Part shown: positions 5,976 through 62,920 of the stretch, piece after piece
Position numbering within the stretch: the stretch's first letter is position 1
How the letters are laid out: each line of letters opens with the position of its first letter
Source: an uncultured virus (IMG/VR IMGVR_UViG_3300037325_000280)
Lineage: Duplodnaviria > Heunggongvirae > Uroviricota > Caudoviricetes
Virus record (IMG/VR): IMGVR_UViG_3300037325_000280
DNA length: 64,000 nucleotides
Direction: 5' to 3' (one strand)
The notes under the pieces: model-generated
Told to the model about the DNA's origin: nothing
What the model saw: only the letters and a program-made list of their open reading frames with translations
The model's database searches: none
Made by a program: the position numbers and the translations under genes

Positions 5976-7400
5976 ATGAATTTCATAGACGCATTAAGAA
6001 CTAAAGACACTTTTACTGAGAATGGCATGCCGACTAATTCAACGTCATTAAATGCATGTGTTGATTTATTTTTTAATATAGGAGCGATGCGAGGTCAAGA
6101 TAAATCTAGATTAATTTCTACTTTTTCAAAGGCATATATTGAAGATCCTATCCGCGCTATGAAAATATTATTTTGGGCTAGAGATATTAGAGGAGGTGCA
6201 GGTGAACGTCAAATATTCAAGGATATATTAGTATACCTTTCAGCAGATCATGATCTTTCACTTAAACCTAACTTAAAATTTATTCCAGAGTATGGCAGAT
6301 GGGATGATTTATTACCATTATTTGGAACTTATTTAGAAAAAGATGCGTTATCAATGATTAAAGAAGCTCTTGATGCTGATAATGCACTATGTGCAAAATG
6401 GATGCCTAGGAAGGGGATTAACGCTGCCCGAATCAGGTCATTTTTAAATTTGACGCCAAGGCAATATCGAAAATTACTAGTTAATTTGACAAACGTAGTT
6501 GAAACACAAATGTGTGCTAATGATTGGGATTCCATTGCCTTTGGAAAAATACCCTCAGTTGCGAGTGCAAGATATCAAAAGGCATTTGGAAAAAATGCAT
6601 ATGAGACTTATTCTACATACATTGAATCTTTAACAAAAGGAGAATCTAAAATTAACGCAGGAGCAGTATACCCTTACGATATTACAAAGACACTGGAACA
6701 TGGTAGTTCAATAGTAGCCAACGAACAATGGAAAGCTCTACCGAATTATATGGAAGGTATTACTGAAAATATACTGCCAATAGTAGACGTATCAGGTTCT
6801 ATGTGTGCATCAGCTGGAGGAAGCAAGTATGTATCATGTATGGATGTTGCAATATCACTGGGACTTTATATTTCAGAAAGAAATAGCGGTGCTTTTAAGG
6901 ATGCATTTATTACATTCTCATCTAACCCTACGCTTCAAGTACTAAAAGGATCACTGTATGATAGATATTCTCAAATGAATTCATCAAAGTGGGGAATGTC
7001 AACTGATATTCAAGCGACATTTAAGATGATTTTAAAACATTCTGTTGAAAATAAATTAGAAAAAGAAGAAATGCCATCTAAGATATTAATATTATCTGAT
7101 ATGGAATTTGATCAAGCTGTAAATTCATGGAGGCAAAATGAAAAAGGATGGAATCCTAGTGTAAATGAACTGATCAGTAAGACGTATAATGACGCTGGAT
7201 ATGATATGCCACAAATAGTTTATTGGAATATTCAATCAAGGAATGGAGGAATTCCAGTTTCATTTAAAGAAGATGGAACTGCACTTATATCTGGATTCTC
7301 TCCAGCTATAATGACAAGTATATTAGGCGGAAAAATTGAATCACCGTATCAAATAATGGACAAAACTATAATGAAAGAAAGATATGAACAAATAAAATAA
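5976..7400 (+). CDS. TROVE/DUF2828 plus vWA domain protein (Ro60-related)
   Basis: TENG, RDIRGGAGER, IPEYGRWDDL, AKWMPR; MIDAS motif DVSGSM; LSDMEFD; SGFSP. Confidence 0.85.
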   Translation: MNFIDALRTKDTFTENGMPTNSTSLNACVDLFFNIGAMRGQDKSRLISTFSKAYIEDPIRAMKILFWARDIRGGAGERQIFKDILVYLSADHDLSLKPNLKFIPEYGRWDDLLPLFGTYLEKDALSMIKEALDADNALCAKWMPRKGINAARIRSFLNLTPRQYRKLLVNLTNVVETQMCANDWDSIAFGKIPSVASARYQKAFGKNAYETYSTYIESLTKGESKINAGAVYPYDITKTLEHGSSIVANEQWKALPNYMEGITENILPIVDVSGSMCASAGGSKYVSCMDVAISLGLYISERNSGAFKDAFITFSSNPTLQVLKGSLYDRYSQMNSSKWGMSTDIQATFKMILKHSVENKLEKEEMPSKILILSDMEFDQAVNSWRQNEKGWNPSVNELISKTYNDAGYDMPQIVYWNIQSRNGGIPVSFKEDGTALISGFSPAIMTSILGGKIESPYQIMDKTIMKERYEQIK

Positions 7401-7413
7401 ATAAAAAAAAATA

Positions 7414-7703
7414 AGATTCCATACAGCAAACAATAAAAAGCAAAACTGTTAAGCAAATGGACAGGAATCTGGCGGATGGCTACAGCAACTAATAAACTAA
7501 CAAATATGATAGTTAATTTTACATGTAAAATTAACACGTGGAAATCTTTAAAGGCCGACCACTATAAAAAATGGTACAAGGTCATACTTCTCTAATTAAG
7601 TATTCGAAAATATGTTGAATCTAGTAGACTTATATTTCGATTAACGAAGACTATAAAGAGGGATATTCTTGCCGAAGAAGAAAAAATACGAAAAGCCATC
7701 CCG
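7414..7703 (+). ncRNA. Candidate structured RNA(s): two stem-TACAGCAA units downstream of the TROVE gene
   Basis: agattcc 7414-7420 pairs with ggaatct 7464-7470; ggatggct 7474-7481 pairs with agccatcc 7694-7701; each 5' strand runs into TACAGCAA; several internal hairpins. Confidence 0.6.
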
Positions 7704-7715
7704 TACTATTAAAAT

Positions 7716-7758
7716 AAACCCTGAAAACTGTTAATAACTTTTTATTCAGGGTTTTTTT
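7716..7758 (+). terminator. Intrinsic terminator
   Basis: aaaccctgaa...ttcagggttt followed by T-run. Confidence 0.7.
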
Positions 7759-7814
7759 ATGTCTATTTTTTTGATTATATTTACATATAGAAATTAATAT
7801 AAAACTTAAATATT

Positions 7815-10108: not shown

Positions 10109-11506
10109 ATGATTCTTGACATTGAGCAAAGGGATAAAGACGTTATTATATCGTATTATAATACAGAAGGAGAAGTAGCGTTTAAACAATATCCCGTAAG
10201 TAATTTTCAGAATTGGTATGTATGCGAGGACAAAGATAAAGCAGCCAGTACTCAATTTAAAAATTGGGATGGTAGATCTGTTAAACTTGGAAATGGAAGA
10301 CAATATAATAAGTTTTCCATTCTTTATTTTCTAGATAGTCTATCTGAAAAAGATAAGGCAGATCTTACTGCATATAATATGCCAAAAACATATTTTGTGG
10401 ATATTGAAACTGAGATAGTTGATGGTTTTCCAAAGGCAGAAGAGGCTAAAAGTAGAATATTATCATTTTCAATAATCACACCTGACCGCAAGGCAATAGT
10501 TCTTGGATTAGAAGACATGGCATCTGATAAAATTCAAAAGATTCAAGATGATACTAATGAGTATTTTAAGGATTTTGACATGGATTGGGAATTTAAATAT
10601 CATAAGTTTAATTCTGAATATGATATGGTATATACATTCCTGTTTAAGTTTTTACCTAAATTTCCGATGATGACTGGTTGGAATTTTATTAATTATGACT
10701 GGCAATATATTACAAACAGATGTAAAAGATTACAGATAGATATTAAAGATATTGGAAGGACAAAATCAGTAGATAACAGAGATTCAAGACCTTTACACCT
10801 TGGAATTTTAGATTATATGCAATTATATGACAAGTATGATAGAAGTGTAAAAGTAAAGGAATCCAACTCCCTTGATTATGTTTCTAGTCAAGTCCTTAAT
10901 GTTAATAAAATCAAGTTCACAGGATCATTGCAAGACCTGTATCGTGACAACTTTGTTAAATACATATATTATAATGTAGTCGATTCAGTTTTAGTGTACT
11001 ATATCGATCAAAAACTAAAGTCAATGGAAGTTCTTTTAACTCTTGCAAATATTACAAATATGCCATTGTATAAGGCAAGTTCTCCAGTGGCAGTTACTGA
11101 AGCAATTATGGCTAGAAAGTTAGCAGAACAAGGAATGCGAATCGGTAGTGAAGAAAAAACAGATAGTAGTAAAGATACTCAATATGCAGGTGCTTATGTT
11201 AAGGAACCTATTTTAGGATATTATGAAGGAGTAAGTGCATTCGATTTTGCTTCGCTATATCCTTCAATAATGCGTCAGTTTAATATTTCACCAGATGCAT
11301 ATATTGAAAAAATTTACAAGAGTGAAATAGAAGAAAGAAGAAAGGATAAAGGGGTTATTGTATGTGACAATGGAGTTGTTTATAAAACCGAAGACTCTAT
11401 TCTTAGAAAAATATTAAGTGATCTATATAATCAACGTAAGGATTACAAAAAAACATCATATACATATTTTACACTCGCAGATAAATTAAAGAAAAGACTT
11501 AAATAA
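10109..11506 (+). CDS. gp43: Family B DNA polymerase, N-terminal subunit (3'-5' exonuclease plus motif A)
   Basis: DIETE (ExoI), GWNFINYD (ExoII), YNVVD (ExoIII), YAGAYVKEP, FDFASLYPS; ends in the fingers at RKDYKK. Confidence 0.9.
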   Translation: MILDIEQRDKDVIISYYNTEGEVAFKQYPVSNFQNWYVCEDKDKAASTQFKNWDGRSVKLGNGRQYNKFSILYFLDSLSEKDKADLTAYNMPKTYFVDIETEIVDGFPKAEEAKSRILSFSIITPDRKAIVLGLEDMASDKIQKIQDDTNEYFKDFDMDWEFKYHKFNSEYDMVYTFLFKFLPKFPMMTGWNFINYDWQYITNRCKRLQIDIKDIGRTKSVDNRDSRPLHLGILDYMQLYDKYDRSVKVKESNSLDYVSSQVLNVNKIKFTGSLQDLYRDNFVKYIYYNVVDSVLVYYIDQKLKSMEVLLTLANITNMPLYKASSPVAVTEAIMARKLAEQGMRIGSEEKTDSSKDTQYAGAYVKEPILGYYEGVSAFDFASLYPSIMRQFNISPDAYIEKIYKSEIEERRKDKGVIVCDNGVVYKTEDSILRKILSDLYNQRKDYKKTSYTYFTLADKLKKRLK

Positions 11507-11554: not shown

Positions 11555-12535
11555 ATGAACAATAATATCTTTGAAAAAAGAGTAAATATTTTACCTTACG
11601 AATATCCAATGTTACTTGCATATAAAGATGCAATTAGACACTCATACTGGATTCACACTGAATTTAATTTCACAACAGACATTGATGATTTTAAGAGTAA
11701 AATAACAGAAGAGGAAAGAGAAGTTATAAAAAGGTCAATGTTGGCAATAGCGCAAATTGAAGTAAATGTAAAAACATTTTGGGCTGACCTTTACAAAAGA
11801 ATGCCAATTACTGAAATTGGAGATGTAGGAATGACGTTTGCGGAATCAGAAGTAAGACATAAAGACGCTTATGCACAATTACTCAGAATTTTAGGATTAG
11901 AAGAGGAATTTAAAAATGTAGTTGAAATTCCTGCGATTAAAGATAGAATTGCATATCTATCAAAATATCTAGATGGTACCAGAAGCAAGGATAATAAAAT
12001 GTATACTAAATCAGTACTTTTATTTTCACTATTCATAGAGCATGTTAGTTTATTTAGTCAATTTTTAATTATGATGTCGTTTAACAAGGAGAAAAACCTC
12101 TTCAAAGGTATTTCAAATGTAGTTGAAGCGACAAGCAAGGAGGAAGAAATCCACGGAAATTTCGGTTCAGAATTAATTAACATTATTAAGAAAGAAAATC
12201 CAGAATGGTTTGATGCAGAATTCGAAGAACTAATAGATTCAGCATGTAAAAAGGCGTATGCATCTGAGGTTAAAATACTTGATTGGATTTTTGAAAAAGG
12301 AGAATTAGATTTTTTATCTAAAGATACAATTAAACAATTTATTCAAAACAGATTTAACAATTCATTAGGAAGAATTGGAATGAAGCCAGTATTTGATGTA
12401 GATTTTAATGAAATAGAAAAAACATTATGGTTTGACATTGAAATTCTATCAACAAAGGAGGGAGACTTCTTTTACAAAAAAAGTATCGATTATTTTAAGA
12501 AATCAAAGTCAATTACTGAAGATGATTTATTCTAG
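11555..12535 (+). CDS. nrdB: Ribonucleotide reductase class I beta subunit
   Basis: ESEVRHKDAY, EHVSLFSQF, KEEEIH diiron ligands. Confidence 0.92.
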   Translation: MNNNIFEKRVNILPYEYPMLLAYKDAIRHSYWIHTEFNFTTDIDDFKSKITEEEREVIKRSMLAIAQIEVNVKTFWADLYKRMPITEIGDVGMTFAESEVRHKDAYAQLLRILGLEEEFKNVVEIPAIKDRIAYLSKYLDGTRSKDNKMYTKSVLLFSLFIEHVSLFSQFLIMMSFNKEKNLFKGISNVVEATSKEEEIHGNFGSELINIIKKENPEWFDAEFEELIDSACKKAYASEVKILDWIFEKGELDFLSKDTIKQFIQNRFNNSLGRIGMKPVFDVDFNEIEKTLWFDIEILSTKEGDFFYKKSIDYFKKSKSITEDDLF

Positions 12536-12551
12536 AAAAAAACAAAACAAC

Positions 12552-13616
12552 ATGAATTACGAAAAGAATTATTGGCTTAATGAAGATAGTCGAACATTCC
12601 TCTCTCGCGGCTATATTAAGGAAACACCCGAGCAACGAATTAAGGATATATCTAATAATGCAGAAAAGATACTAAAAATTGATGGATTTGCAAAGAAGTT
12701 TGAGGAGTATATGAACTTAGGTTTTTATAGTTTATCAACACCTGTTTGGATTAATTTCGGAAAAGACAAAGGTCTTCCTGTTAGCTGTTATGGAAGTAAT
12801 GTAGATGATAACTTAGATAGTATATTAAATGCAAGTAGAGAAATAGGAATGATGTCAAAATACGGAGGAGGAACTTCAGCTTTTTTAGGAAACATCAGAG
12901 AAAGAGGAGCTACTATTTCCACAGGAGGAACAGCAGACGGACCTGTTCATTATGCCAGAATGTATGATACAACCGTTGATGTATGTAAACAATCAGAGGC
13001 AAGAAGAGGTGCATGTGCAGTATGGTTGCCAGTAGAACATAAAGATATCTTAGAATTTTTAGACATTGGAACTGATGGAAATCCTATTCAAAATTTACAA
13101 TACGGAGTCACCGTAACTGATAATTGGATATCAGAAATGAAAGAAGGAGATACTCAAAAACGTAAAATATGGGCAAAGATTATTCAACGACGTAATGAGT
13201 TTGGTTTTCCTTACATTATGTTTAAGGATAATAGTAATAACAATTCCCCTTATAAGGAATTAGGCCTTGACATTACTGCCTCAAACTTATGCGTAGCACC
13301 TTGGACTGAAGTTAGTGTAAAAGTAAATGGCGTTGAAAAAACGATGCCAATTATAATGTTAGATTGTTTATTTCAATATAATCTATATACAACACTAGAA
13401 GTTAAATCATTTAACATAGAAACTTCTGAGATTGAATATAAAAAAGTGATAGATAGTGCAATGACTTCTAAAAAAGCAAAAGTTATGAAAATAACAGATG
13501 AAGCTACTGGAAAATCAATAACATGTACACTGGATCATAAAGTATATACTTCGAATAGAGGATATATTATGGCAAAAAATCTAAGAGAAGATGACGTATT
13601 AGTTATTAATTCTTAA
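12552..13616 (+). CDS. nrdA: RNR alpha subunit N-terminal part fused to split intein N-half (IntN 13290-13613, 108 aa)
   Basis: STPVW, PVSCY, GGGTS, RRGACA, GFPY, ASNL then CVAPWTEV; intein block B CTLDHKVY. True start MNYEK at 12552. Confidence 0.92.
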   Translation: MNYEKNYWLNEDSRTFLSRGYIKETPEQRIKDISNNAEKILKIDGFAKKFEEYMNLGFYSLSTPVWINFGKDKGLPVSCYGSNVDDNLDSILNASREIGMMSKYGGGTSAFLGNIRERGATISTGGTADGPVHYARMYDTTVDVCKQSEARRGACAVWLPVEHKDILEFLDIGTDGNPIQNLQYGVTVTDNWISEMKEGDTQKRKIWAKIIQRRNEFGFPYIMFKDNSNNNSPYKELGLDITASNLCVAPWTEVSVKVNGVEKTMPIIMLDCLFQYNLYTTLEVKSFNIETSEIEYKKVIDSAMTSKKAKVMKITDEATGKSITCTLDHKVYTSNRGYIMAKNLREDDVLVINS

Positions 13617-13685: not shown

Positions 13686-14630
13686 ATGAACTATGAACGA
13701 ATATACAATAACTTATGTGAATTATGTAAAACAACTGATGTTAAAGATCGATTAAGTAATAGGAATGCCAATGATGAAAGGCTTAGTGCAGACTATATTT
13801 ATACTGAAAAACATCATATAGTACCTAAGCATATTGGAGGTGATGACTTAGAATCTAATCTAGTTGTTATGTTACCTGAAGAACACTATATGGCACATTT
13901 ATTAAGATTTAAAGCTTATAATAATAGAAAAGATTTTCTAGCAATTAGATTCATGGTTAACGGATATGTTTATAAGAAAAAAGTATCTAGTGCATTAAGT
14001 TCCAAATTAAAGAATAAGTTGGTTGCATCATTCAAACAGAATATATCAATGTTTAGAAAGCAAAATACATGGCATAGTATTAAAGGTGTAAACAACATAT
14101 CAGAAGCAAGAAAGGGTACAATGCCTGTTGTAGATTCTGAAACGCTTAAAATGATAGGTTCTGTTGATGTAAATCATCCAAATGTTTTATCTGGAAAATG
14201 GAGACACCATTCAACTGGTAAGATATCAGTAATATGTAAAACATCAGGTGTTAAGAAATACATAACAGTGAATGAATATAGGGATAATTATGACGAATAT
14301 CATGCAAACATCGGCGACGCTAAAGGTGAAAAGAATTCAAGATTTAGTGGATTTACTGACGAAGAGCTTGTTAATATTGTATCTGAATTTTCAGTTGAAA
14401 TGAACTTAGGATTTTTATTACCATATAGAATGGTGTCGACTTACTATAGAAAAATTAAAAAGTATGAAAAATTACCAAAATCATTTAGCTCGTTTAGATT
14501 TAATGGATTAGGTAGTAAAGAATTACATAGATTAGCATCTGAAAAAACAGGATTAGTTCTTAATGTATATTACAATAATAGTCCAAAAATAAGAAAAGAA
14601 ATTAAAAACAAAAATATAACAATATGTTAA
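13686..14630 (+). mobile_element. Free-standing HNH homing endonuclease between the nrdA halves
   Basis: EKHHIVPK-GGDD-NLV-EEHYMAHLL. Confidence 0.85.
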
Positions 14631-15610
14631 AAATACAATATTTAGAAGAAGAAATACCAGTCTTCGATATTACAGTAGAAGATAACCACAACTTCTACGG
14701 GGACGATATATTAGTCCACAATTGCAGTGAGATTCAGCTTCCAACTGATTCTTTTAATTCGTTTGTATGTTGTTTAGGTTCTATTAATCTTTTACATTGG
14801 GATGAGATTAAAAAAACAGATGCTATCGAAACATATGTATTGTTCTTAAATGCAGTTATGGATGAATTTATTAAGAAGTCATTTAAAATGCCAGGTATGT
14901 CAAGGGCACATCGATTTGCCGAACAACATAGAGCATTAGGTCTAGGGGTTCTTGGCTATCATTCACTATTCCAGTCAAAATTAATAACATTTGACTCTTT
15001 ACAATCAAAGGCATTAAACCATGATATATTTTCAACTTTAAAGGAAAGAAGTGATGGGGCATCCCGATGGTTACATGATGAAAAAGGTTATCGATCTTTA
15101 AGAGATGGATATGCAAATACAACATTAGTTGCGATTGCACCAACAAAGAGTAGTTCATTTATTTTAGGTCAAGTTTCAATGGGAATAGAGCCTATTAAAT
15201 CTAATTATTTTATTAAAGATTTAGCAAAGTCAAAAACAATATACAAAAATCCATTTCTTATTGATGAATTAATCAAGTATAACTTAAATACACCTGAAGT
15301 ATGGGAAGGAATTCTTAAAAGAGATGGAAGTGTTCAGCACTTAGACTTTCCAACAAAGGAAGTTTTTAAATCTTTTGTTGAAATTACACCAAAAGAAATA
15401 GTTTTACAAGCAGCACAGAGACAGAAATTTATAGATCAGTCACAATCATTAAATTTAATGATTCATCCTAGTGTTCCGGCAAAGGACATTAATAAATTGT
15501 ATTTATATGCCCATGAAGAGGGAATCAAAACACTTTACTACCAATTTAGTCAAGGCTCAGCTCAATCATTTGCTAGAGATATTTTAGACTGTGCAAGCTG
15601 TGAAGCGTAA
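14624..15610 (+). CDS. nrdA: Split intein C-half (33 aa, 14624-14722) fused to RNR alpha C-terminal part
   Basis: VFDITVEDNHNFYGDDILVHN then CSEIQLP; APTKSSS, QSQSLN, KTLYY, C-terminal CASCE. Confidence 0.92.
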   Translation: MLKIQYLEEEIPVFDITVEDNHNFYGDDILVHNCSEIQLPTDSFNSFVCCLGSINLLHWDEIKKTDAIETYVLFLNAVMDEFIKKSFKMPGMSRAHRFAEQHRALGLGVLGYHSLFQSKLITFDSLQSKALNHDIFSTLKERSDGASRWLHDEKGYRSLRDGYANTTLVAIAPTKSSSFILGQVSMGIEPIKSNYFIKDLAKSKTIYKNPFLIDELIKYNLNTPEVWEGILKRDGSVQHLDFPTKEVFKSFVEITPKEIVLQAAQRQKFIDQSQSLNLMIHPSVPAKDINKLYLYAHEEGIKTLYYQFSQGSAQSFARDILDCASCEA

Positions 15611-16528: not shown

Positions 16529-17725
16529 ATGACAATAGATGAATTAATACTAAAACCAGAAGAAAATCTAACACAAGAGGAGATTAAAATATTGGTTGAA
16601 CATTATTCAATGATGTCAGCTAAATATACGGCATATGAACAGGCAGTTAAGGTAATGCTTAACTCAATATATGGTGCATTTGGAAATAAATGGTTTCACT
16701 TTTTTAACATAGACATTGCTGAATCTATTACACTACAGGGTCAATCCGCCATTTTATACTCAGAAAAAATTCTTAATAAGTATTTTCATGAATTTTGGCT
16801 TAAAGATAAGCAAGTGCATTCTCATTTTAATATTTCTATTAAGAATAAACTAGTAAGACCATCTGTTGTTTATATTGACACCGATTCGGCATATGTTCAA
16901 TTCGAAGAAATGTATGAATCTATTGAGTGGAATGATGATTCTATGTCAATAGATAAGTTTATTATGGAATTATATAACTTTAGACTTAAGGATTACATTT
17001 TTAAGTGTATGGAAAAGTATTCAGAAGCAACAAATACTGAAAATTTTCTTGTATTTGAATTAGAAACAATAGCATATTCAGGAATATGGTTAGCTAAGAA
17101 AAAATATCTTCAAAATATAGCATGGGAAGACAGGCTTGACATTAATGATAGATATCCTTCACTTAAAAAAATAAAAACAATAGGATTCGATACTATTCAA
17201 AGTTCAACACCTGCAATTGCAAGGAAGCATTTAACTGAAGCCCTTAAATTGATTCTTTCAGAAAAGCCAACAGCAGCTCTCCTAAAAAGATTAGTAGATT
17301 ATTTAAAACAATGTAAAAAAGAATTTCAGCTCGCAGATATAGATGAAATTTGCTTCAACAAAAGAACTAATAACATTGATAAGTATATTTTAGATGACAC
17401 TGTTGAATTCCAGTATGGCTTAAAATGCCCATCTAATGTCAAGGCGGCAGGTTTTTATAATTTTCTAATGAATAACAATCCAAAATATAAAAACAAGTAC
17501 AAGATGATTGGTAACGGTGAAAAACTTAGACTGTATCATTGTAAACATACTACTTGTGAAATATTTGCATATCAACCAGGTGCTCATCCATATGAAATAG
17601 CACCACTTGTAGATTATGAACTACAATTTGAAAAAAGCGTAATTGATCCGTTAAACAGAGTTCTTTCAGCGGTAGGATTACATACACTAAACAGAAATTT
17701 AATTTATTCAACATCATTATTTTAA
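16529..17725 (+). CDS. gp43: Family B DNA polymerase, C-terminal subunit (motifs B and C, thumb)
   Basis: KVMLNSIYGAFG, YIDTDS, AKKKY, SSTP. Confidence 0.9.
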   Translation: MTIDELILKPEENLTQEEIKILVEHYSMMSAKYTAYEQAVKVMLNSIYGAFGNKWFHFFNIDIAESITLQGQSAILYSEKILNKYFHEFWLKDKQVHSHFNISIKNKLVRPSVVYIDTDSAYVQFEEMYESIEWNDDSMSIDKFIMELYNFRLKDYIFKCMEKYSEATNTENFLVFELETIAYSGIWLAKKKYLQNIAWEDRLDINDRYPSLKKIKTIGFDTIQSSTPAIARKHLTEALKLILSEKPTAALLKRLVDYLKQCKKEFQLADIDEICFNKRTNNIDKYILDDTVEFQYGLKCPSNVKAAGFYNFLMNNNPKYKNKYKMIGNGEKLRLYHCKHTTCEIFAYQPGAHPYEIAPLVDYELQFEKSVIDPLNRVLSAVGLHTLNRNLIYSTSLF

Positions 17726-54170: not shown

Positions 54171-54229
54171 TTAACAAAGATTTAACACTTTAAATTTTCA
54201 TAATGTCTATATATTGATTATATTTACAT
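54171..54229 (+). promoter_or_regulatory. Class I promoter: TTAACA-N5-TTAACA ... TGATTATATTTACAT
   Basis: Same architecture at 54805, 55539, 59513 and 61063. Confidence 0.7.
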
Positions 54230-54457: not shown

Positions 54458-54790
54458 ATGTCAATATCTTACGAAAAGAACATACGATTTGAAAATTCAA
54501 ATAAAATGAAATATGAAAGATTCGAAATATACGCGTGGATTAACAGGTCAATTGAATCTTGTATACATCTAAATCAATTAGTGGCATGCCGTACTTTAAT
54601 ATCTAGATTTAATATAATGTATAATGATACTGATTTAACTGAGAATTTACGATGGTATGCTAATCAAAAAATATACTCTTTTTCAAATAAAAATAAATTA
54701 AATGGTAAGAGATTGTGTGATTGTCACGAGGAAGAATTAATACAAAATCATAATGTAAATACCAAAGAACATCCAGGTGATTATGATTAA
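54458..54790 (+). CDS. Hypothetical protein
   Basis: 110-aa ORF. Confidence 0.55.
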   Translation: MSISYEKNIRFENSNKMKYERFEIYAWINRSIESCIHLNQLVACRTLISRFNIMYNDTDLTENLRWYANQKIYSFSNKNKLNGKRLCDCHEEELIQNHNVNTKEHPGDYD

Positions 54791-54804
54791 TTTAAAACAA
54801 AAAT

Positions 54805-54860
54805 TTAACAAAAATTTAACACTAATTATTTCTTTATTAACCCAAAATTGATTAGATTTA
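54805..54860 (+). promoter_or_regulatory. Class I promoter upstream of the ncRNA cluster
   Basis: TTAACA at 54805 and 54816, TAGATTTA at 54853 (same 37-nt offset as the other copies). Confidence 0.65.
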
Positions 54861-54886
54861 TATATAATAATTGATCAAGTAATAAA

Positions 54887-55503
54887 AATTCATAAACGCA
54901 TCTAAACGGGCAGTAGGAGATGATGAATTAAAATAAATTGTATAATAAGCAAGAAATAGTCAACTTAAGATAAGGCTAAAGTACTGTATGAAAAAATATC
55001 CGAAAAGGGTTTAAGGCACACGAGTCAATTCCTAATGGAGAATAACGAAGCTCATGGTATCAATCAAACGCCTCCACGTGGCGATACTGGAAATTAGTTA
55101 TGAACCTCGGCCGAGGAAAGCAACTAAAACTAAGTTTGAAAAATAGGTAACTGATGAATGTGGTTCGAGTCCGCACCCGTAATAGCCAAAGGGTTGAAGC
55201 ATTGAGGATGATGCATAAGTTATAACAGGTCTGCAGGCCTGGGTACGTCCGGTTAAAGTCGTAGCACTACAGACAAGAGGTTCGAATCCTCTGTACCCAC
55301 TAATAGATTACATGAGTTTGAGCCTCATTTGGCCTTTAAGAAATAAGGGTCGATAGTTTAATAAAGAATAAAACAATCTAATAAAAAAATGTATTAGTCG
55401 AAGTCAAAAGCTCGAAAGCTGCGCCTTAACTGGTAAGCTACAGTCAATCCCTGACTGACGTATAAATATAGGCTGGTGAAGCCCAGAAGACTAATACATT
55501 TTT
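54887..55503 (+). ncRNA. Cluster of structured non-coding RNA domains including three T-arm tRNA mimics and a Y-RNA-like stem
   Basis: No ORF of 60 aa or more, GC higher than flanks, many hairpins; T-arms at 55159-55175, 55276-55292, 55312-55328; 15-bp closing stem 55385-55399/55489-55503. Confidence 0.7.
55240..55300 (+). ncRNA. Non-canonical mini tRNA-like element (acceptor stem plus T-arm, no D-stem, no clear anticodon loop)
   Basis: tgggtac/gtaccca 7-bp stem; agagg-TTCGAAT-cctct. Confidence 0.65.
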
Positions 55504-55538
55504 ATTTTCATGAAAAAATCAATTTAAATAGATAAAAA

Positions 55539-55597
55539 TTAACAAAGTTTTAACACTTTAAATTTTTAATAGTTCAATATATTGATTATATTTACAT
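55539..55597 (+). promoter_or_regulatory. Class I promoter
   Basis: TTAACA at 55539 and 55550; TATATTTA at 55587. Confidence 0.7.
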
Positions 55598-55620
55598 ATA
55601 CAAATTAAAACAATCATATT

Positions 55621-55776
55621 ATGAAATTAATCTACATGGAACAAACGTTAAATCTAATTGCTCAAACCCAGTTAGAGTTTATAAGTGAATTAGTAAAAAC
55701 AGGTAAAATTATTCAATTAGAAAAAATTGCATACTTATTAATTGAAGATAATATTAATATCGAAAATAAAATATAA
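55621..55776 (+). CDS. Small hypothetical protein (51 aa)
   Basis: Read manually: MKLIYMEQTLNLIAQ...; first ATG after the promoter. Confidence 0.5.
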   Translation: MKLIYMEQTLNLIAQTQLEFISELVKTGKIIQLEKIAYLLIEDNINIENKI

Positions 55777-55778
55777 TT

Positions 55779-55994
55779 ATGGAAAAATTAGGAGCAGGTT
55801 TAGTTGTAATTTTCACAGGTTTAGCACTTATTTTATTTGCATGTGTTATATGTGCATGGCCAGTACAATTATTATGGAATGGATGTTTATTAACAGCAGT
55901 GGATGGAGTACATGAAATATCATTCTGGCAGGCATTAGGATTAAACTTCCTATTTTCAATATTATTTAAAGCAAACGTAAAAACAGCAAAATAA
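55779..55994 (+). CDS. Small membrane protein
   Basis: LWNG...ISFWQALGL...ILFK, common phage membrane-protein pattern. Confidence 0.65.
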   Translation: MEKLGAGLVVIFTGLALILFACVICAWPVQLLWNGCLLTAVDGVHEISFWQALGLNFLFSILFKANVKTAK

Positions 55995-56443
55995 TGGAAA
56001 CAATCATATTCGATCTAGATGGAACTCTAGCACATATAGATGAACGTAAGGCAAAAGCAACAAAACCAGATGGGAAAATAAATTGGCAGGTTTTCTTTGC
56101 ACCTGAGAACATCCAGATGGATAAGCCAAATGCAGCTGTGATTCTTATGTTTATGGCACTTAAGAATGTAGGATATAATATGGTTATTTTTAGCGGTAGA
56201 GATGCAGTTAGTAGAAATGAAACGGTAGTTTGGTTAAATCAGCATGGAATTTTTCCGGATGAATTAAAAATGAGAAAAACAGGAACATTTACACCTGATA
56301 ATATACTAAAGAAACTCTGGCTAGAAGATCTTCGCAAAGAAGGACACTACGTTATATGTTCATATGATGATAGGGACAAGGTTGTTAAAATGTGGAGAGA
56401 TAATGGAGTACCTTGTATGCAGGTTGCAGAAGGAAACTTTTAA
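55994..56443 (+). CDS. HAD-family polynucleotide 3'-phosphatase (PseT C-terminal domain-like)
   Basis: FDLDGTLA, FSGR, LKMR, DDRDKVVKMWR. Confidence 0.85.
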   Translation: METIIFDLDGTLAHIDERKAKATKPDGKINWQVFFAPENIQMDKPNAAVILMFMALKNVGYNMVIFSGRDAVSRNETVVWLNQHGIFPDELKMRKTGTFTPDNILKKLWLEDLRKEGHYVICSYDDRDKVVKMWRDNGVPCMQVAEGNF

Positions 56444-59512: not shown

Positions 59513-59571
59513 TTAACATAAATTTAACAATTAATATTTTTTATAACATTATAAAATGATTATATTTACAT
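59513..59571 (+). promoter_or_regulatory. Class I promoter upstream of the ECF sigma gene
   Basis: TTAACA at 59513 and 59524; TATATTTA at 59561. Confidence 0.7.
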
Positions 59572-59592: not shown

Positions 59593-60189
59593 ATGGCAAC
59601 TTACAGAGAATTAACAGAGAATTTTTTACTAACCAGATCAGATGCAGATTTTACTGCTTTATTTTATAAAATTAAACCAGGGTTAACGTCATATGTAAAT
59701 AAGATAGTTAAAGATCGCGAGCTAGCAGAAGATATTTCTATAAATACTTTAACTAAAATGTGGACTAAAATTGATCAATACGATCCTCAGTATCAAATTA
59801 CCACATGGTTATACCGCATTGGATTCAATGATGCCTTAGGTCATATTAAAAATAGAAATAAACAATCATCACTTGATGTTCTTTCTGAGTTTGGTGTTGA
59901 AATTAATGAGGCAGGTGAATTTACAACAGGATTGCAAGGCGCATTTGATGATTATGAAATGAAAACCGAACAAGATTATCTAGATGAGGATAACGAACTA
60001 ATGGAAAATTACGGTAAAGTTTTAAATGCAATTGATTCATTGAAGGTGTTATACAAAGGTATCGTTGTTGATAGATTAATTAATGAAATGAAGTATGAGG
60101 ATATTGCCGAAAAGCACAACCTTCCATTACAAACAATTAAAAATAGAATCCACCGAGGAAAATCGATTATTGAAAAAATGGCAATATAA
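59593..60189 (+). CDS. ECF-type (sigma-70 group 4) sigma factor
   Basis: AEDI...KMW.KIDQYD...TTWLYRI..N (region 2); MKYEDIAE..NLPLQTIKNRIHRG (region 4 HTH). Confidence 0.88.
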   Translation: MATYRELTENFLLTRSDADFTALFYKIKPGLTSYVNKIVKDRELAEDISINTLTKMWTKIDQYDPQYQITTWLYRIGFNDALGHIKNRNKQSSLDVLSEFGVEINEAGEFTTGLQGAFDDYEMKTEQDYLDEDNELMENYGKVLNAIDSLKVLYKGIVVDRLINEMKYEDIAEKHNLPLQTIKNRIHRGKSIIEKMAI

Positions 60190-60637: not shown

Positions 60638-61059
60638 ATGAACAATACAAAAACAAATAAAGCCCTCGTTAAGGAACTCTTCCTTTTAAGAGGGCTGCCG
60701 TGACAGGATCTGGAAAAACAACACTAGCAAAATCAATTGGAGGTTATCATTATGAGGCAGATCAATACTTCACTGACGAAAATGGAGTATACTCTTTCGA
60801 TTTTTCCAAAATAAAATTAGCACATGAATCATGTAAACTAAATACAGTTGCGGCGATGCTAGCAAAGGCTTCTAGAATTGTAGTTTCAAACACATTTACA
60901 CAGGAATGGGAAATGCAATCATATCATGATATGGCAAAGGATTTTGGATATGTAGTATATTCATTGATTGTTGAAAATAGACATGATGGAAAAAACTCAC
61001 ATAATGTTCCTCAGGAATCATTAGATAAAATGAAACAAAGATTCGAAGTTAAGTTATAA
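60638..61059 (+). pseudogene. P-loop kinase (AAA_33/PNK-like) interrupted inside Walker A by a stop and frame change
   Basis: ATG 60638 reads ...KELFLLRGLP* (TGA 60701); GSGKTTLAK...EADQYF...VSNTF continues in the -1 frame. Confidence 0.7.
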
Positions 61060-61783: not shown

Positions 61784-62920
61784 ATGGAAAATTTAAATTC
61801 AGTATGTTACGTTGGTTTAGTTACGGAAATTAATGAAATTAAAGGGGCTGATTTTCTTGAATTAGCATTAATCGGAGGTTGGAGTTGTGTAACTAAGAAA
61901 AACGAATTTCAAACTGGTGATAAGATAGTGGTTGCAACAACCGATGCGGTCATTCCTGAGGCACTTTCAGATTTGATGGGTGTTACTACATATCTCAGAA
62001 AAGGTAACCGCGTGCGCACTGTGAAGTTACGAGGAGTATACTCCGAGTGTCTTCTTATTCCATTTAAGTATTTAGCACCGCAGTCTTTAGAAAAAAATTG
62101 TCCAGTTGGAACTGATATGATGTTAATGTTAGGTGTTACTAAATATGAGCCTCCTGTTAGACAAATTCAACTTGCTGGAGGTAGAAAAATTAAATATCGA
62201 GACAATCAAAACTTTCATGTTTATTACAAATTTCCAAATTTAAAAAATGTGGATGGAATGTTCAACGAAACAGACGAAGTTCAAATTACAAGAAAAATTC
62301 ACGGAACAAACGCGAGATTCGGTATTGTTAGAAAAAATAAATTATCTATATGGGATAATATTAAAAAATACTTAAAATTTCCGGGACATAAATTCATTGG
62401 ATATGAGTATGTATATGGTTCACATAATGTTGAAAAAGGAAGTGACTCACAAGGTTTCTATTCTACTGATGTTTGGTCTAATATTGCAAAGCAGTATGGG
62501 ATTAAAGAAAGTCTTTGGGAATATGCAAAAAACATACACACTAGTATTGGTGAAGGAATTGTAATTTATGGTGAAATTTATGGAGCAGGTATTCAAAAGA
62601 ACTATGAATACGGTTTAACAGATACTCAATTTGTTGCATTCGATATTAAACGAGATGGAGAATATTTATCACCAAAAACCACCGAATTCTTAATAAATGA
62701 AGAGTTTAATCTTCCACATGTCGAGGTATTACACTCTGGCCTTTGGTCTCAATCAGTGCAAGACGAATTTACATTCAAAAACTTTATTAAAGGAACAAAG
62801 GTTCCACACGAAGGCATTGTAATTAAGTATCATACTGGTGAAAGAAATAAAATAGCAAAGGTTATTAATCCAGACTATTTATGCTATAGTGAAGCAAATG
62901 ATGTAGAAGATTCCCATTAA
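61784..62920 (+). CDS. RNA ligase, DRB0094/Rnl2-like, with N-terminal OB (tRNA-binding-like) domain
   Basis: I.GAD.LE...GW, VRTVKLRGVYS, KIHGTN, YGEIYG.GIQK, FDI, EGIVIK, AKVIN. Confidence 0.85.
   Translation: MENLNSVCYVGLVTEINEIKGADFLELALIGGWSCVTKKNEFQTGDKIVVATTDAVIPEALSDLMGVTTYLRKGNRVRTVKLRGVYSECLLIPFKYLAPQSLEKNCPVGTDMMLMLGVTKYEPPVRQIQLAGGRKIKYRDNQNFHVYYKFPNLKNVDGMFNETDEVQITRKIHGTNARFGIVRKNKLSIWDNIKKYLKFPGHKFIGYEYVYGSHNVEKGSDSQGFYSTDVWSNIAKQYGIKESLWEYAKNIHTSIGEGIVIYGEIYGAGIQKNYEYGLTDTQFVAFDIKRDGEYLSPKTTEFLINEEFNLPHVEVLHSGLWSQSVQDEFTFKNFIKGTKVPHEGIVIKYHTGERNKIAKVINPDYLCYSEANDVEDSH

Follow-up and report, generated by a model that had tools for sequence, protein, structure and literature searches.

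To our knowledge, non-decoding RNAs of phage tRNA operons have been known since species 1 and 2 of phage T4, and their function is still unexplained. Here we describe a cluster of RNA modules of related kind, hereafter the cassette, at positions 54,887 to 55,503 of a 64,000-nucleotide (nt) stretch of DNA (the window) from an uncultured virus of the Caudoviricetes (IMG/VR record IMGVR_UViG_3300037325_000280). Our comparative analyses indicate that it is probably a non-coding RNA operon in its own right, carried by a large T4-like phage and built as a chain of independent modules that include a predicted hepatitis delta virus (HDV)-like ribozyme and two tRNA look-alikes. In T4, the species 1 and 2 stable RNAs (rnaC and rnaD; NC_000866) are located behind tRNA-Arg in the tRNA cluster and, like the modules described here, are small non-tRNA RNAs beside tRNA genes of a T4-type phage. 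One of them ends in a T-arm and an acceptor-like strand, as does a look-alike of the cassette, whereas the T4 locus has no ribozyme. When our model of the two look-alikes was run on the T4 tRNA locus, the best match reached 18 bits and consisted essentially of the T-loop, with no detectable similarity otherwise. Further parallels are offered by tRNA-like processing signals such as mascRNA behind MALAT1 and by the mitochondrial tRNA punctuation model, in which RNase P or RNase Z is directed to the ends of neighboring RNAs. A non-decoding look-alike of the cassette could define neighboring RNA ends in the same manner; those systems are eukaryotic.

The predicted ribozyme resembles HDV-like ribozymes of the F. 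prausnitzii type (RF02682) and the theta ribozymes, for which we rely on selected sections of Kienbeck et al. (2024, PMC10879173). All share with the window the double pseudoknot of P1, P1.1, P2, P3 and P4, the G-U wobble at the cut site, the J4/2 cytosine and the L3 sequence UCCNCGU. Theta ribozymes are likewise found in Caudoviricetes, often in tRNA regions, with an RNA ligase of the DRB0094 family in the same phages (54.5% of the phages with theta ribozymes); 526 of their occurrences are not beside tRNAs and have no assigned role in the sections consulted. The minimal theta ribozymes differ from the one described here in P4, which in the cassette and its homologs is long and variable (29 to ~100 nt), and in the position of the cut, which lies at most 5 nt from a tRNA 3′ end, whereas here it adjoins an uncatalogued RNA of ~140-170 nt. 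The locus thus lacks the short L4 and J1/2 and the cut near a tRNA 3′ end that those sections give for theta ribozymes; no ARAGORN tRNA and no Rfam match was found upstream. Theta ribozymes were described from gut phages, whereas the contigs that carry the cassette come from aquatic and salt-lake metagenomes.

The first look-alike (tRNA-like 1) is closest in shape to YrlA (RF02553), as described in the portions consulted of Chen et al. (2014, PMC4201824) and Wang et al. (2018, 10.1101/312249). In the latter, the arms of the YrlA domain are given in the order anticodon stem, T stem-loop (nt 33-49), acceptor stem-loop (50-64) and D stem-loop (67-81), and tRNA-like 1 has the same permuted arm order. 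The T-loop UUCGA, the GG of the D-loop and a Ro60-like protein encoded by the phage are also common to both. Unlike YrlA, tRNA-like 1 has neither a Ro-binding terminal stem nor an adjacent GNCGAAN0-1G motif, and it always precedes a second tRNA look-alike. YrlA is found within ~4 kb of a Ro60 gene, whereas ~48 kb separate tRNA-like 1 from the Ro60-like gene, which has the same orientation; tRNA-like 1 would thus present the topology of YrlA, a permuted tRNA, outside a Ro60 locus. The Rfam model of YrlA gave nothing above its cut-off (69 bits) in five phage records and no match on tRNA-like 1, and an Rfam search of 55140-55305 at E up to 10 did not return it either. The best sub-threshold YrlA match (33.5 bits) was at G007:C1:107109-107221, in a tRNA array. 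A search of the literature on T4 species 1 RNA and on phage tRNA-like RNAs with HDV-like ribozymes retrieved no paper describing the cassette, although the 10,006 candidate RNAs of PMC10690425 may include it.

Predicted HDV-like ribozyme and the RNA upstream of it

As listed in Table 1, the + strand at 55056-55139 contains a complete nested double pseudoknot, in the order P1-P2-P3-P3′-P1′-P1.1-P4-P4′-J4/2-P2′. A preliminary description of the stretch had listed the stems ggtatc/gatact enclosing cgcc/ggcg and ttagtt/aactaa enclosing cctcg/cgagg and had left them unassigned; all are present, the former as P1 and P3 and the latter as P4 of the HDV-like fold. A strict descriptor of the ribozyme, composed after the candidate had been seen, had a single match in the window, and 20 dinucleotide shuffles gave no match. 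Over 18 homolog variants, 97.3% of the cells were paired, compared with 27-45% when the partners were slid, and compensatory changes were seen in 7 of the 23 pairs (one each in P1, P2 and P3, and four in P4). Both P1.1 C-G pairs and the cut-site G-U wobble were kept in 18/18 variants, and the J4/2 cytosine was followed by Y-A-A directly ahead of the P2 3′ strand in all 19 variants listed. The P4 of the window measures ~34 nt; variable P4 length is usual for the class of HDV-like ribozymes. In a permissive Rfam search of 1 kb, HDV-F-prausnitzii (RF02682) was matched at 55057-55121 with 19.2 bits (E 0.66; gathering score 44). The L3 sequence UCCACGU is identical in other phage HDV-like ribozymes retrieved by the core pattern. 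The P3/L3 core (GCC UCCACGU GGC) also recurs in unrelated HDV-like ribozymes on the G+C-rich phage contigs L094-L097 and L099-L102, where a ribosome-binding site and its start codon follow a few dozen bases downstream. The fold is thus supported by descriptor and covariation, and from it the RNA would be expected to cleave itself at the 55055/55056 junction.

The ~140 nt upstream of the predicted cut site (169 nt in the window) are conserved among the ribozyme-bearing copies and constitute an element that we call U RNA, for which no Rfam match was obtained at E up to 10. RNAalifold applied to 10 homologs returned 24 pairs, 8 of them compensatory, forming a 5′ hairpin, a three-pair helix around a hairpin whose loop has 12 nt, and a hairpin capped by GAAA. 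The first of these is made of the aattcat/atgaatt and catct/agatg stems that had been pointed out before. The GAAA hairpin is a site of expansion, as 31 nt of it (55006-55036) are missing in one close relative and in one metagenome contig. The loop hexamer of the palindromic-loop hairpin was palindromic in all 19 distinct loci (CTTAAG in 13, CTCGAG in 3, CGGCCG in 2 and TGGCCA in 1), and in a population variant found on a metagenome contig both 54966 and 54967 are changed, which again gives CTCGAG. As every spelling of the hexamer is its own reverse complement, two copies of U RNA could pair with each other, and U RNA would most likely do so through a kissing loop. With regard to the orphan phage ribozymes, the cassette would thus offer an HDV-like ribozyme with a defined partner, namely a conserved, probably dimerizing RNA whose 3′ end it would make.

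Two tRNA look-alikes

Downstream of the ribozyme we found a twin unit composed of tRNA-like 1, hairpin H and tRNA-like 2. The first corresponds to a tRNA whose anticodon loop has been opened and whose acceptor end has been sealed, with a closing stem of 6-9 bp. In a covariance-model alignment of 27 distinct homologs, which was fitted to a structure that we had built and leans towards that model, 94.1% of the cells were paired (33-43% in slid controls) and 24 of 41 pairs showed compensatory changes. In tRNA-like 1, pairing reached 96.8% for the closing stem, 97.6% for the T-arm, 80.8% for the capped hairpin and 73.1% for the D-arm. Hairpin H was 100% paired, with compensatory changes in three of its five pairs in both the model-fitted and a plain MAFFT alignment. 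The acceptor stem of tRNA-like 2 was 99.4% paired with 6/6 pairs compensatory, its T stem was 100% paired (3/5 compensatory), and its short arm had compensatory changes in 5/6 pairs. In the MAFFT alignment (28 sequences), hairpin H and T-arm 2 were likewise 100% paired, T-arm 1 and the short arm 92-93%, and the acceptor stem of tRNA-like 2 was out of register. The minimum-free-energy fold of 55227-55300 reproduces the structure of hairpin H and tRNA-like 2. A covariance model of the twin unit detected exactly one copy in the window (55144-55302, 174 bits). A competing helix between 55229-36 and 55267-74 was ruled out, as the homologs favor hairpin H and the acceptor stem, and so was a reading of the twin unit as a two-piece transfer-messenger RNA (tmRNA), for which no conserved tag frame was found and ARAGORN returned nothing.

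As had been claimed, none of the modules is a canonical tRNA or tmRNA: ARAGORN reported no such genes in the whole window, no Rfam 15 family reached its gathering score there, and on 55140-55305 the tRNA clan gave only a weak match (tRNA-Sec, 14.1 bits). Three T-arm modules had been proposed for the region. Two of them, the T-arms of tRNA-like 1 and tRNA-like 2, are borne out by covariation, and the third, at 55312-55328, lies in a block (55301-55383) that folded no better than shuffles (z-score -1.59), had no comparative support for that arm and no Rfam match of note. By analogy with tRNAs, tRNA-like 2 would be expected to be processed by RNase P, RNase Z and the CCA-adding enzyme. Our best guess for the role of the modules is that they act as stable tRNA-shaped ligands, i.e., scaffolds or sponges, for tRNA-binding or Ro-type proteins and not as decoders. 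A decoy role against tRNA-targeting nucleases, which had also been suggested, is possible but unsupported; for anticodon nucleases it is awkward, since both look-alikes are devoid of an anticodon loop.

Table 1. Features of the cassette and of related loci in the window
Feature	Position or sequence	Strand	Remarks
Structured non-coding RNA behind the Ro60-like gene	7401-7760		terminator at end; conservation in 53/80 loci, RNAalifold
Promoter-like repeat	54805-54865	+	TTAACAAAAATTTAACAC (54805-54822) and downstream box ATTGATTAGATTTATATAT (54847-54865)
U RNA, uncatalogued conserved RNA	54887-55055	+	169 nt in the window; 3′ end set by the predicted ribozyme cut
U RNA 5′ hairpin	54887-54929	+	
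U RNA palindromic-loop hairpin	54957-54978	+	loop hexamer CUUAAG, 54964-54969
U RNA UCC-GAAA-GGA hairpin	54999-55039	+	with lineage-specific 31-nt insertion, 55006-55036
U RNA single-stranded tail	AACGAAG, 55044-55050	+	invariant tail AAUAACGAAGC reaches the cut
Predicted HDV-like self-cleaving ribozyme	55056-55139	+	predicted cut between U55055 and G55056
Ribozyme P1	55056-61 with 55083-88	+	first pair G55056-U55088, wobble
Ribozyme P2	55064-69 with 55134-39	+	
Ribozyme P3	55070-72 with 55080-82	+	
Ribozyme L3	55073-79	+	UCCACGU
Ribozyme P1.1	C55074, C55075 with G55089, G55090	+	
Ribozyme P4	55094-99 with 55122-27	+	tip 55105-08 with 55113-16
Ribozyme J4/2	AA-C55130-UAA	+	
tRNA-like 1, circularly permuted tRNA shape	55147-55223	+	closing stem 55147-55 with 55215-23
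tRNA-like 1 T-arm	55159-55175	+	loop UUCGAGU
tRNA-like 1 capped acceptor-like hairpin	55176-55193	+	stacks on T-arm, loop-closed
tRNA-like 1 D-arm	55199-55214	+	GG in loop
Hairpin H	55227-55240	+	5 bp, UGCA loop, between both tRNA look-alikes
tRNA-like 2	55241-55300	+	6-bp acceptor stem 55241-46 with 55293-98, then A55299, C55300
tRNA-like 2 unpaired D-loop-like segment	GUCCGGUUAAA	+	GUYYGGUUAAA, replaces D-arm
tRNA-like 2 short arm	55258-55274	+	bulged 6-bp stem and tetraloop, replaces anticodon arm
tRNA-like 2 T-arm, canonical	55276-55292	+	GGUUCGAAUCC
Spacer with T-arm-like hairpin and second hairpin	55301-55383	+	T-arm-like hairpin 55312-55328 (loop UUUGAGC); status uncertain
Long-stem RNA, 117 nt	55384-55510	+	terminal stem 12-15 bp (55388-99 with 55489-55500), three or four hairpins inside
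GUCGAAG, top of long-stem 5′ strand	55397-55403	+	match to YrlA motif GNCGAAN0-1G
PNKP-type phosphatase domain (PF25109)	55994-56443	+	
AAA_33 kinase-like open reading frame	60700-61059		
RNA ligase	61784-62920	+	best NCBIfam match is DRB0094 type, 98 bits vs. cut-off 151

Folding, and predicted transcription and processing

The cassette lies in the longest gap free of + strand open reading frames (ORFs) in the window (54791-55620, 830 nt; the next ones measure 562 and 414 nt, when ORFs of at least 40 or at least 50 amino acids are counted), in agreement with its description as the largest ORF-free stretch. Exact copies of the element TTAACA-N5-TTAACAC are present on the + strand at 54171, 54805, 55539 and 61063, and a copy that differs at one base is present at 59513; an ATTGATTAnATTTAyATAT box follows each of them ~25 nt downstream. 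With up to two mismatches, 11 matches were counted against 5.6 expected. This two-box repeat precedes four protein genes and the cassette, a further copy is found beyond the cassette (55539), and more than 10 are found in the nearest relative, G001. It is likely to be a promoter, with transcription of the cassette starting near 54870-54886, and the copies at 54805 and 55539 correspond to the two class I promoters between which the cluster was said to lie. The dense pairing noted earlier was confirmed for the + strand, where folding was better than in any of 20 shuffles (z -2.47); folding of the - strand was not better than in shuffles (z -0.62). Conserved G-U pairs were seen on the + strand at the base of the closing stem (26/27) and in P1 (18/18), and point to the + strand as the RNA strand, because on the opposite strand these would be C-A mismatches.

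The 3′ part of the stretch is occupied by the long-stem RNA, which folded better than all 200 shuffles (z -4.61) and is followed by a U-run, UUUUAUUUU, likely to be the end of the transcript. As the U-run stands at its end, the long-stem RNA may double as a terminator. This RNA had been proposed to be the Y-like RNA of the cluster. It does contain GUCGAAG at 55397, the sole match to GNCGAAN0-1G in 54870-55515 (0.16 expected in 646 nt), while the best Y-RNA-like shape of the cassette is that of tRNA-like 1. Patterns and searches with 55300-55515 returned three close relatives only. In relatives, the long stem has a single compensatory replacement, from CTGG/CCAG to CTAG/CTAG, and a G-C pair that has become G-U. 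In two close relatives, G001 (L001 2634-3006) and L010, an extra ~370 nt, absent in the window, separates the long-stem RNA from the promoter-like repeat that comes next.

Taken together, one transcript would run from the promoter-like repeat to the U-run at ~55500-55510. In HDV-ribozyme chemistry the upstream product carries a 2′,3′-cyclic phosphate end and the ribozyme a 5′-OH. By cutting at its own 5′ edge, the ribozyme would thus release a ~169-nt U RNA with a cyclic phosphate and retain a 5′-OH. According to the rules of tRNA processing, the acceptor/T-arm stack of tRNA-like 2 would draw host RNase P to a cut at ~55240/55241, and RNase Z or exonucleases, together with the CCA-adding enzyme, would complete the 3′ end at ~55299/55300. 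The predicted products are U RNA, an RNA of ~185 nt containing the ribozyme, tRNA-like 1 and the hairpin, tRNA-like 2 of ~59 nt, and the lineage-specific long-stem RNA.

Several observations weigh against such a reading. None of the sequencing runs listed as containing the stretch is of RNA; the transcript, its ends and the cleavage are thus predicted. A scan for sigma-70 consensus promoters did not pick the promoter-like repeat, and a consensus terminator scan picked neither the long stem nor the U-run. For the ribozyme, the score of the RF02682 match falls below the gathering score, the descriptor was of late composition, and the gap between P4 and the catalytic cytosine is 1-2 nt, where in the theta motif, in the sections consulted, the cytosine is the first J4/2 base. 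The weakest helices of tRNA-like 1 are the D-arm and the capped hairpin, the latter with no compensatory pair; the alignment from which these values come leans towards our own model, and the homologs were sampled with the bias of exact-pattern retrieval. In G001, T-arm 1 has a mismatch and pair 2 of the tRNA-like 2 acceptor stem is broken. Finally, the last 200 nt of the stretch have almost no comparative support.

Relatives, modularity and alternative explanations

A blastn search with 54700-55700 against 50,697 named phage records gave no match. The region is contained in three near-identical contigs, and among 80 loci around phosphatase homologs the cassette was present in the 3 close relatives only. 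Eight more distant copies were found in viral contigs with the ribozyme-core pattern, and 13 viral, 37 metagenome and 1 metagenome-assembled genome loci with a pattern for the junction of the look-alikes. All loci and the window together gave 63 matches with 34 distinct twin-unit cores. The modules from U RNA to tRNA-like 2 are thereby represented by ~30 sequence variants, with covariation, on contigs of uncultured phages and metagenomes. The exact search patterns fix the T-loop of tRNA-like 2, the UGCA hairpin (loop and closing pair), TATAAC and a part of the closing stem, so that the invariance of the T-loop, the UGCA hairpin and that part of the closing stem is partly by design. Among T4-like aquatic phages, U RNA and the twin tRNA-like unit would represent two conserved families of RNA not contained in Rfam 15.

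The modules are combined in different ways. A ribozyme core was present at most 400 nt upstream in 19 of the 34 distinct units, and in one more the contig ended first; the remaining units were preceded by a different conserved RNA or by a second twin unit in tandem. A conserved RNA of ~90 nt (ACUUUAAGACGUUGGAGAU...GCAGCUUAAAGUAAA) stands before tRNA-like 1 in the ribozyme-less units of L122, L134, L145, L148, L151, L154, L157, L169 and L161, and in L161 it is also found upstream of a U-type RNA and ribozyme. Separate conservation, varied combination, the predicted self-cleaving ribozyme and the look-alike of RNase P type all fit the processed array that had been proposed, just as the promoter-like repeat in front and the non-canonical look-alikes agree with a promoter-driven, non-coding + strand cluster of tRNA mimics. 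The other form considered in the preliminary description, one large ornate RNA, did not hold up, as the modules occur apart.

Canonical tRNAs in the same orientation as the unit were present in the fetched flanks of 18 of 33 loci; eleven other loci, like the window and its close relatives, had none in the sequence fetched around the unit. Since homologs sit within tRNA arrays, the cassette forms part of the tRNA-operon repertoire of these phages, and in the lineage of the window it stands alone behind its own promoter-like repeat. In L111 and L117, further non-canonical tRNA look-alikes that were missed by ARAGORN follow the twin unit. This setting raises the question of whether the modules are a decayed tRNA gene cluster, i.e., drifting remnants without a function of their own. 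In the next relatives, small promoter-driven ORFs occupy the slot upstream of the phosphatase, and in several more distant ones real tRNAs do; the third T-arm-like hairpin is unsupported, and G001, with its weakened T-arm 1 and broken acceptor pair, suggests that some copies of the cassette may be decaying. Yet compensatory changes in 27 distinct variants preserve the very features that set the modules apart from tRNAs (permuted order of arms, capped acceptor, short bulged arm, UGCA hairpin), the unit is kept beside intact tRNAs in phages with many normal tRNAs, and U RNA and the ribozyme are not tRNA-derived, for which reasons we regard decay as highly unlikely.

That the ~620 nt form one large ornate RNA, a single folded particle like ROOL or GOLLD, is in our view very improbable. 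The better-than-shuffled folding of the whole + strand would suit it, as would the self-pairing loop, which fits an oligomer, and the T-loops, which in large RNAs frequently form long-range contacts. Against this stand the varied combination of the modules and the restriction of the 3′ third to close relatives; moreover, the ribozyme would split such an RNA, no long-range helix between modules emerged, and neither ROOL nor GOLLD was listed at E up to 10 in four Rfam sub-searches of the region.

We also assign a very low probability to a DNA-level explanation, in which a mobile or recombination-prone cassette with repeats and tRNA-like ends promotes gene shuffling in a plastic region and RNA folding is secondary. 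The close relatives are indeed a mosaic of two haplotype blocks in 55098-55225 and differ by the 31-nt indel, and the cassette is found at different places in the genomes, bounded by promoter repeats. Strand-specific G-U pairs and compensatory changes, on the other hand, show selection on RNA pairing, and a complete ribozyme core has no DNA-level rationale. This explanation and that of an RNA cassette are mutually compatible. Least credible of all is that the cassette serves the operon downstream (small ORFs and the phosphatase) as a leader or 5′ regulatory region, with the ribozyme trimming mRNA: other phage HDV-like ribozymes with the same L3 do lie just upstream of ribosome-binding sites and the genes here run in the same direction, but the long stem, the U-run and a fresh promoter-like repeat (55539) intervene before the next gene, the same downstream genes are present in relatives that lack the cassette, and homologs precede tRNAs instead of those genes.

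A Ro60-like protein and the conserved RNA behind its gene

The same window encodes a candidate protein partner of the cassette. The + strand ORF at 5976-7400 specifies a 474-amino-acid protein with DUF2828 and DUF7788, a match to phrog_850 (‘RNA-binding protein’) and the DxSxS vWA motif. Its AlphaFold model was mediocre (predicted local distance difference test score, pLDDT, of 60), and in a fold comparison the 11 best PDB matches (E up to 0.001) were all Ro60/TROVE proteins, with Thermus phage phiLo Ro60, Deinococcus Rsr, and frog and human Ro60 among them; the alignments extended over ~500 columns with low template modeling (TM) scores of 0.28-0.40. Single-sequence and profile searches of PDB sequences with the product did not retrieve Ro60, and a literature search on DUF2828 with TROVE returned nothing relevant. 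On the strength of the modeled fold, the protein appears to be Ro60-like. It has more than 7,900 relatives, and among the 120 best listed the source names were ‘hypothetical protein’ or none.

Directly behind this gene is a 414-nt ORF-free gap (7401-7814), almost the whole of which is conserved at 53 of the 80 loci fetched around homologs of the protein. RNAalifold returned 38 pairs for it, of which 19 were compensatory, with a terminator at the end. Most copies of the RNA hold GCCGAAGAC (GCCGAAG, a match to GNCGAAG), and the window has AACGAAGAC at this place, the heptamer AACGAAG of which is the same as in the tail of U RNA (55044). The box GGUUCCUUACAGCAA gave a sub-threshold match to Dictyostelium Class I RNA (25 bits vs. 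a gathering score of 41.5). From these features, the RNA at 7401-7760 is a candidate phage Y RNA, and a better one than anything within 54887-55503.

We therefore considered the cassette as the RNA half of a phage system of Ro60/Y-RNA type, in which the Ro60-like protein would bind tRNA-like 1, U RNA or both and, with the phosphatase, the kinase and the DRB0094-type ligase, would constitute a particle for RNA surveillance, repair or counter-defence; the ribozyme would supply cyclic-phosphate and 5′-OH ends, and the twin look-alikes would be analogues of the T4 species 1 and 2 RNAs. As a whole, we judge this scheme to be unlikely. The Ro60-like gene was present on 3 of 12 cassette-bearing contig fragments, at ~7 kb (G012) and ~62 kb (G007) from the cassette, a co-occurrence that says little because the contigs are fragments. 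The family of ~30 variants, with clear predicted ends and the Ro60-like protein as a candidate partner, makes the function of such non-decoding RNAs directly testable.

Phage and neighboring genes

All long ORFs of the window are on the + strand. They encode a T4-type portal, Gp23-type capsid, tail sheath and tube, clamp loader and terminase. The nearest named relatives of the tail sheath belong to uncultured huge phages and to phages of Tenacibaculum, Flavobacterium, Prevotella (Lak) and Chryseobacterium, and the host is therefore likely to be a member of the Bacteroidota. The nearest record, G001, has 66% of sampled 31-mers in common with the window.

The 3′-phosphatase said to lie just downstream of the cluster, and the kinase and RNA ligase of the same region, were all located (Table 1). 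The position next to the phosphatase is not conserved, as relatives with the same phosphatase are without the cassette and most homologs are in tRNA arrays. The ends left by HDV-type cleavage are exactly those on which healing and sealing enzymes act, and a functional tie of the ribozyme to the phosphatase, kinase and ligase may be regarded as a candidate link only. A phage sigma factor of the extracytoplasmic function (ECF) type is encoded at 59593-60189, with a Bacteroidota subfamily among its best sub-threshold NCBIfam matches, and may be the reader of the repeated promoter-like element.

The window also encodes a family-B DNA polymerase in two parts and a ribonucleotide reductase split by an intein. 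The polymerase is distributed over two ORFs (10109-11506 and 16529-17725) ~5 kb apart, with the ribonucleotide reductase genes in between, and the large subunit of the reductase (12432-13616, 13686-14630 and 14624-15610) is split around an intein-type sequence.

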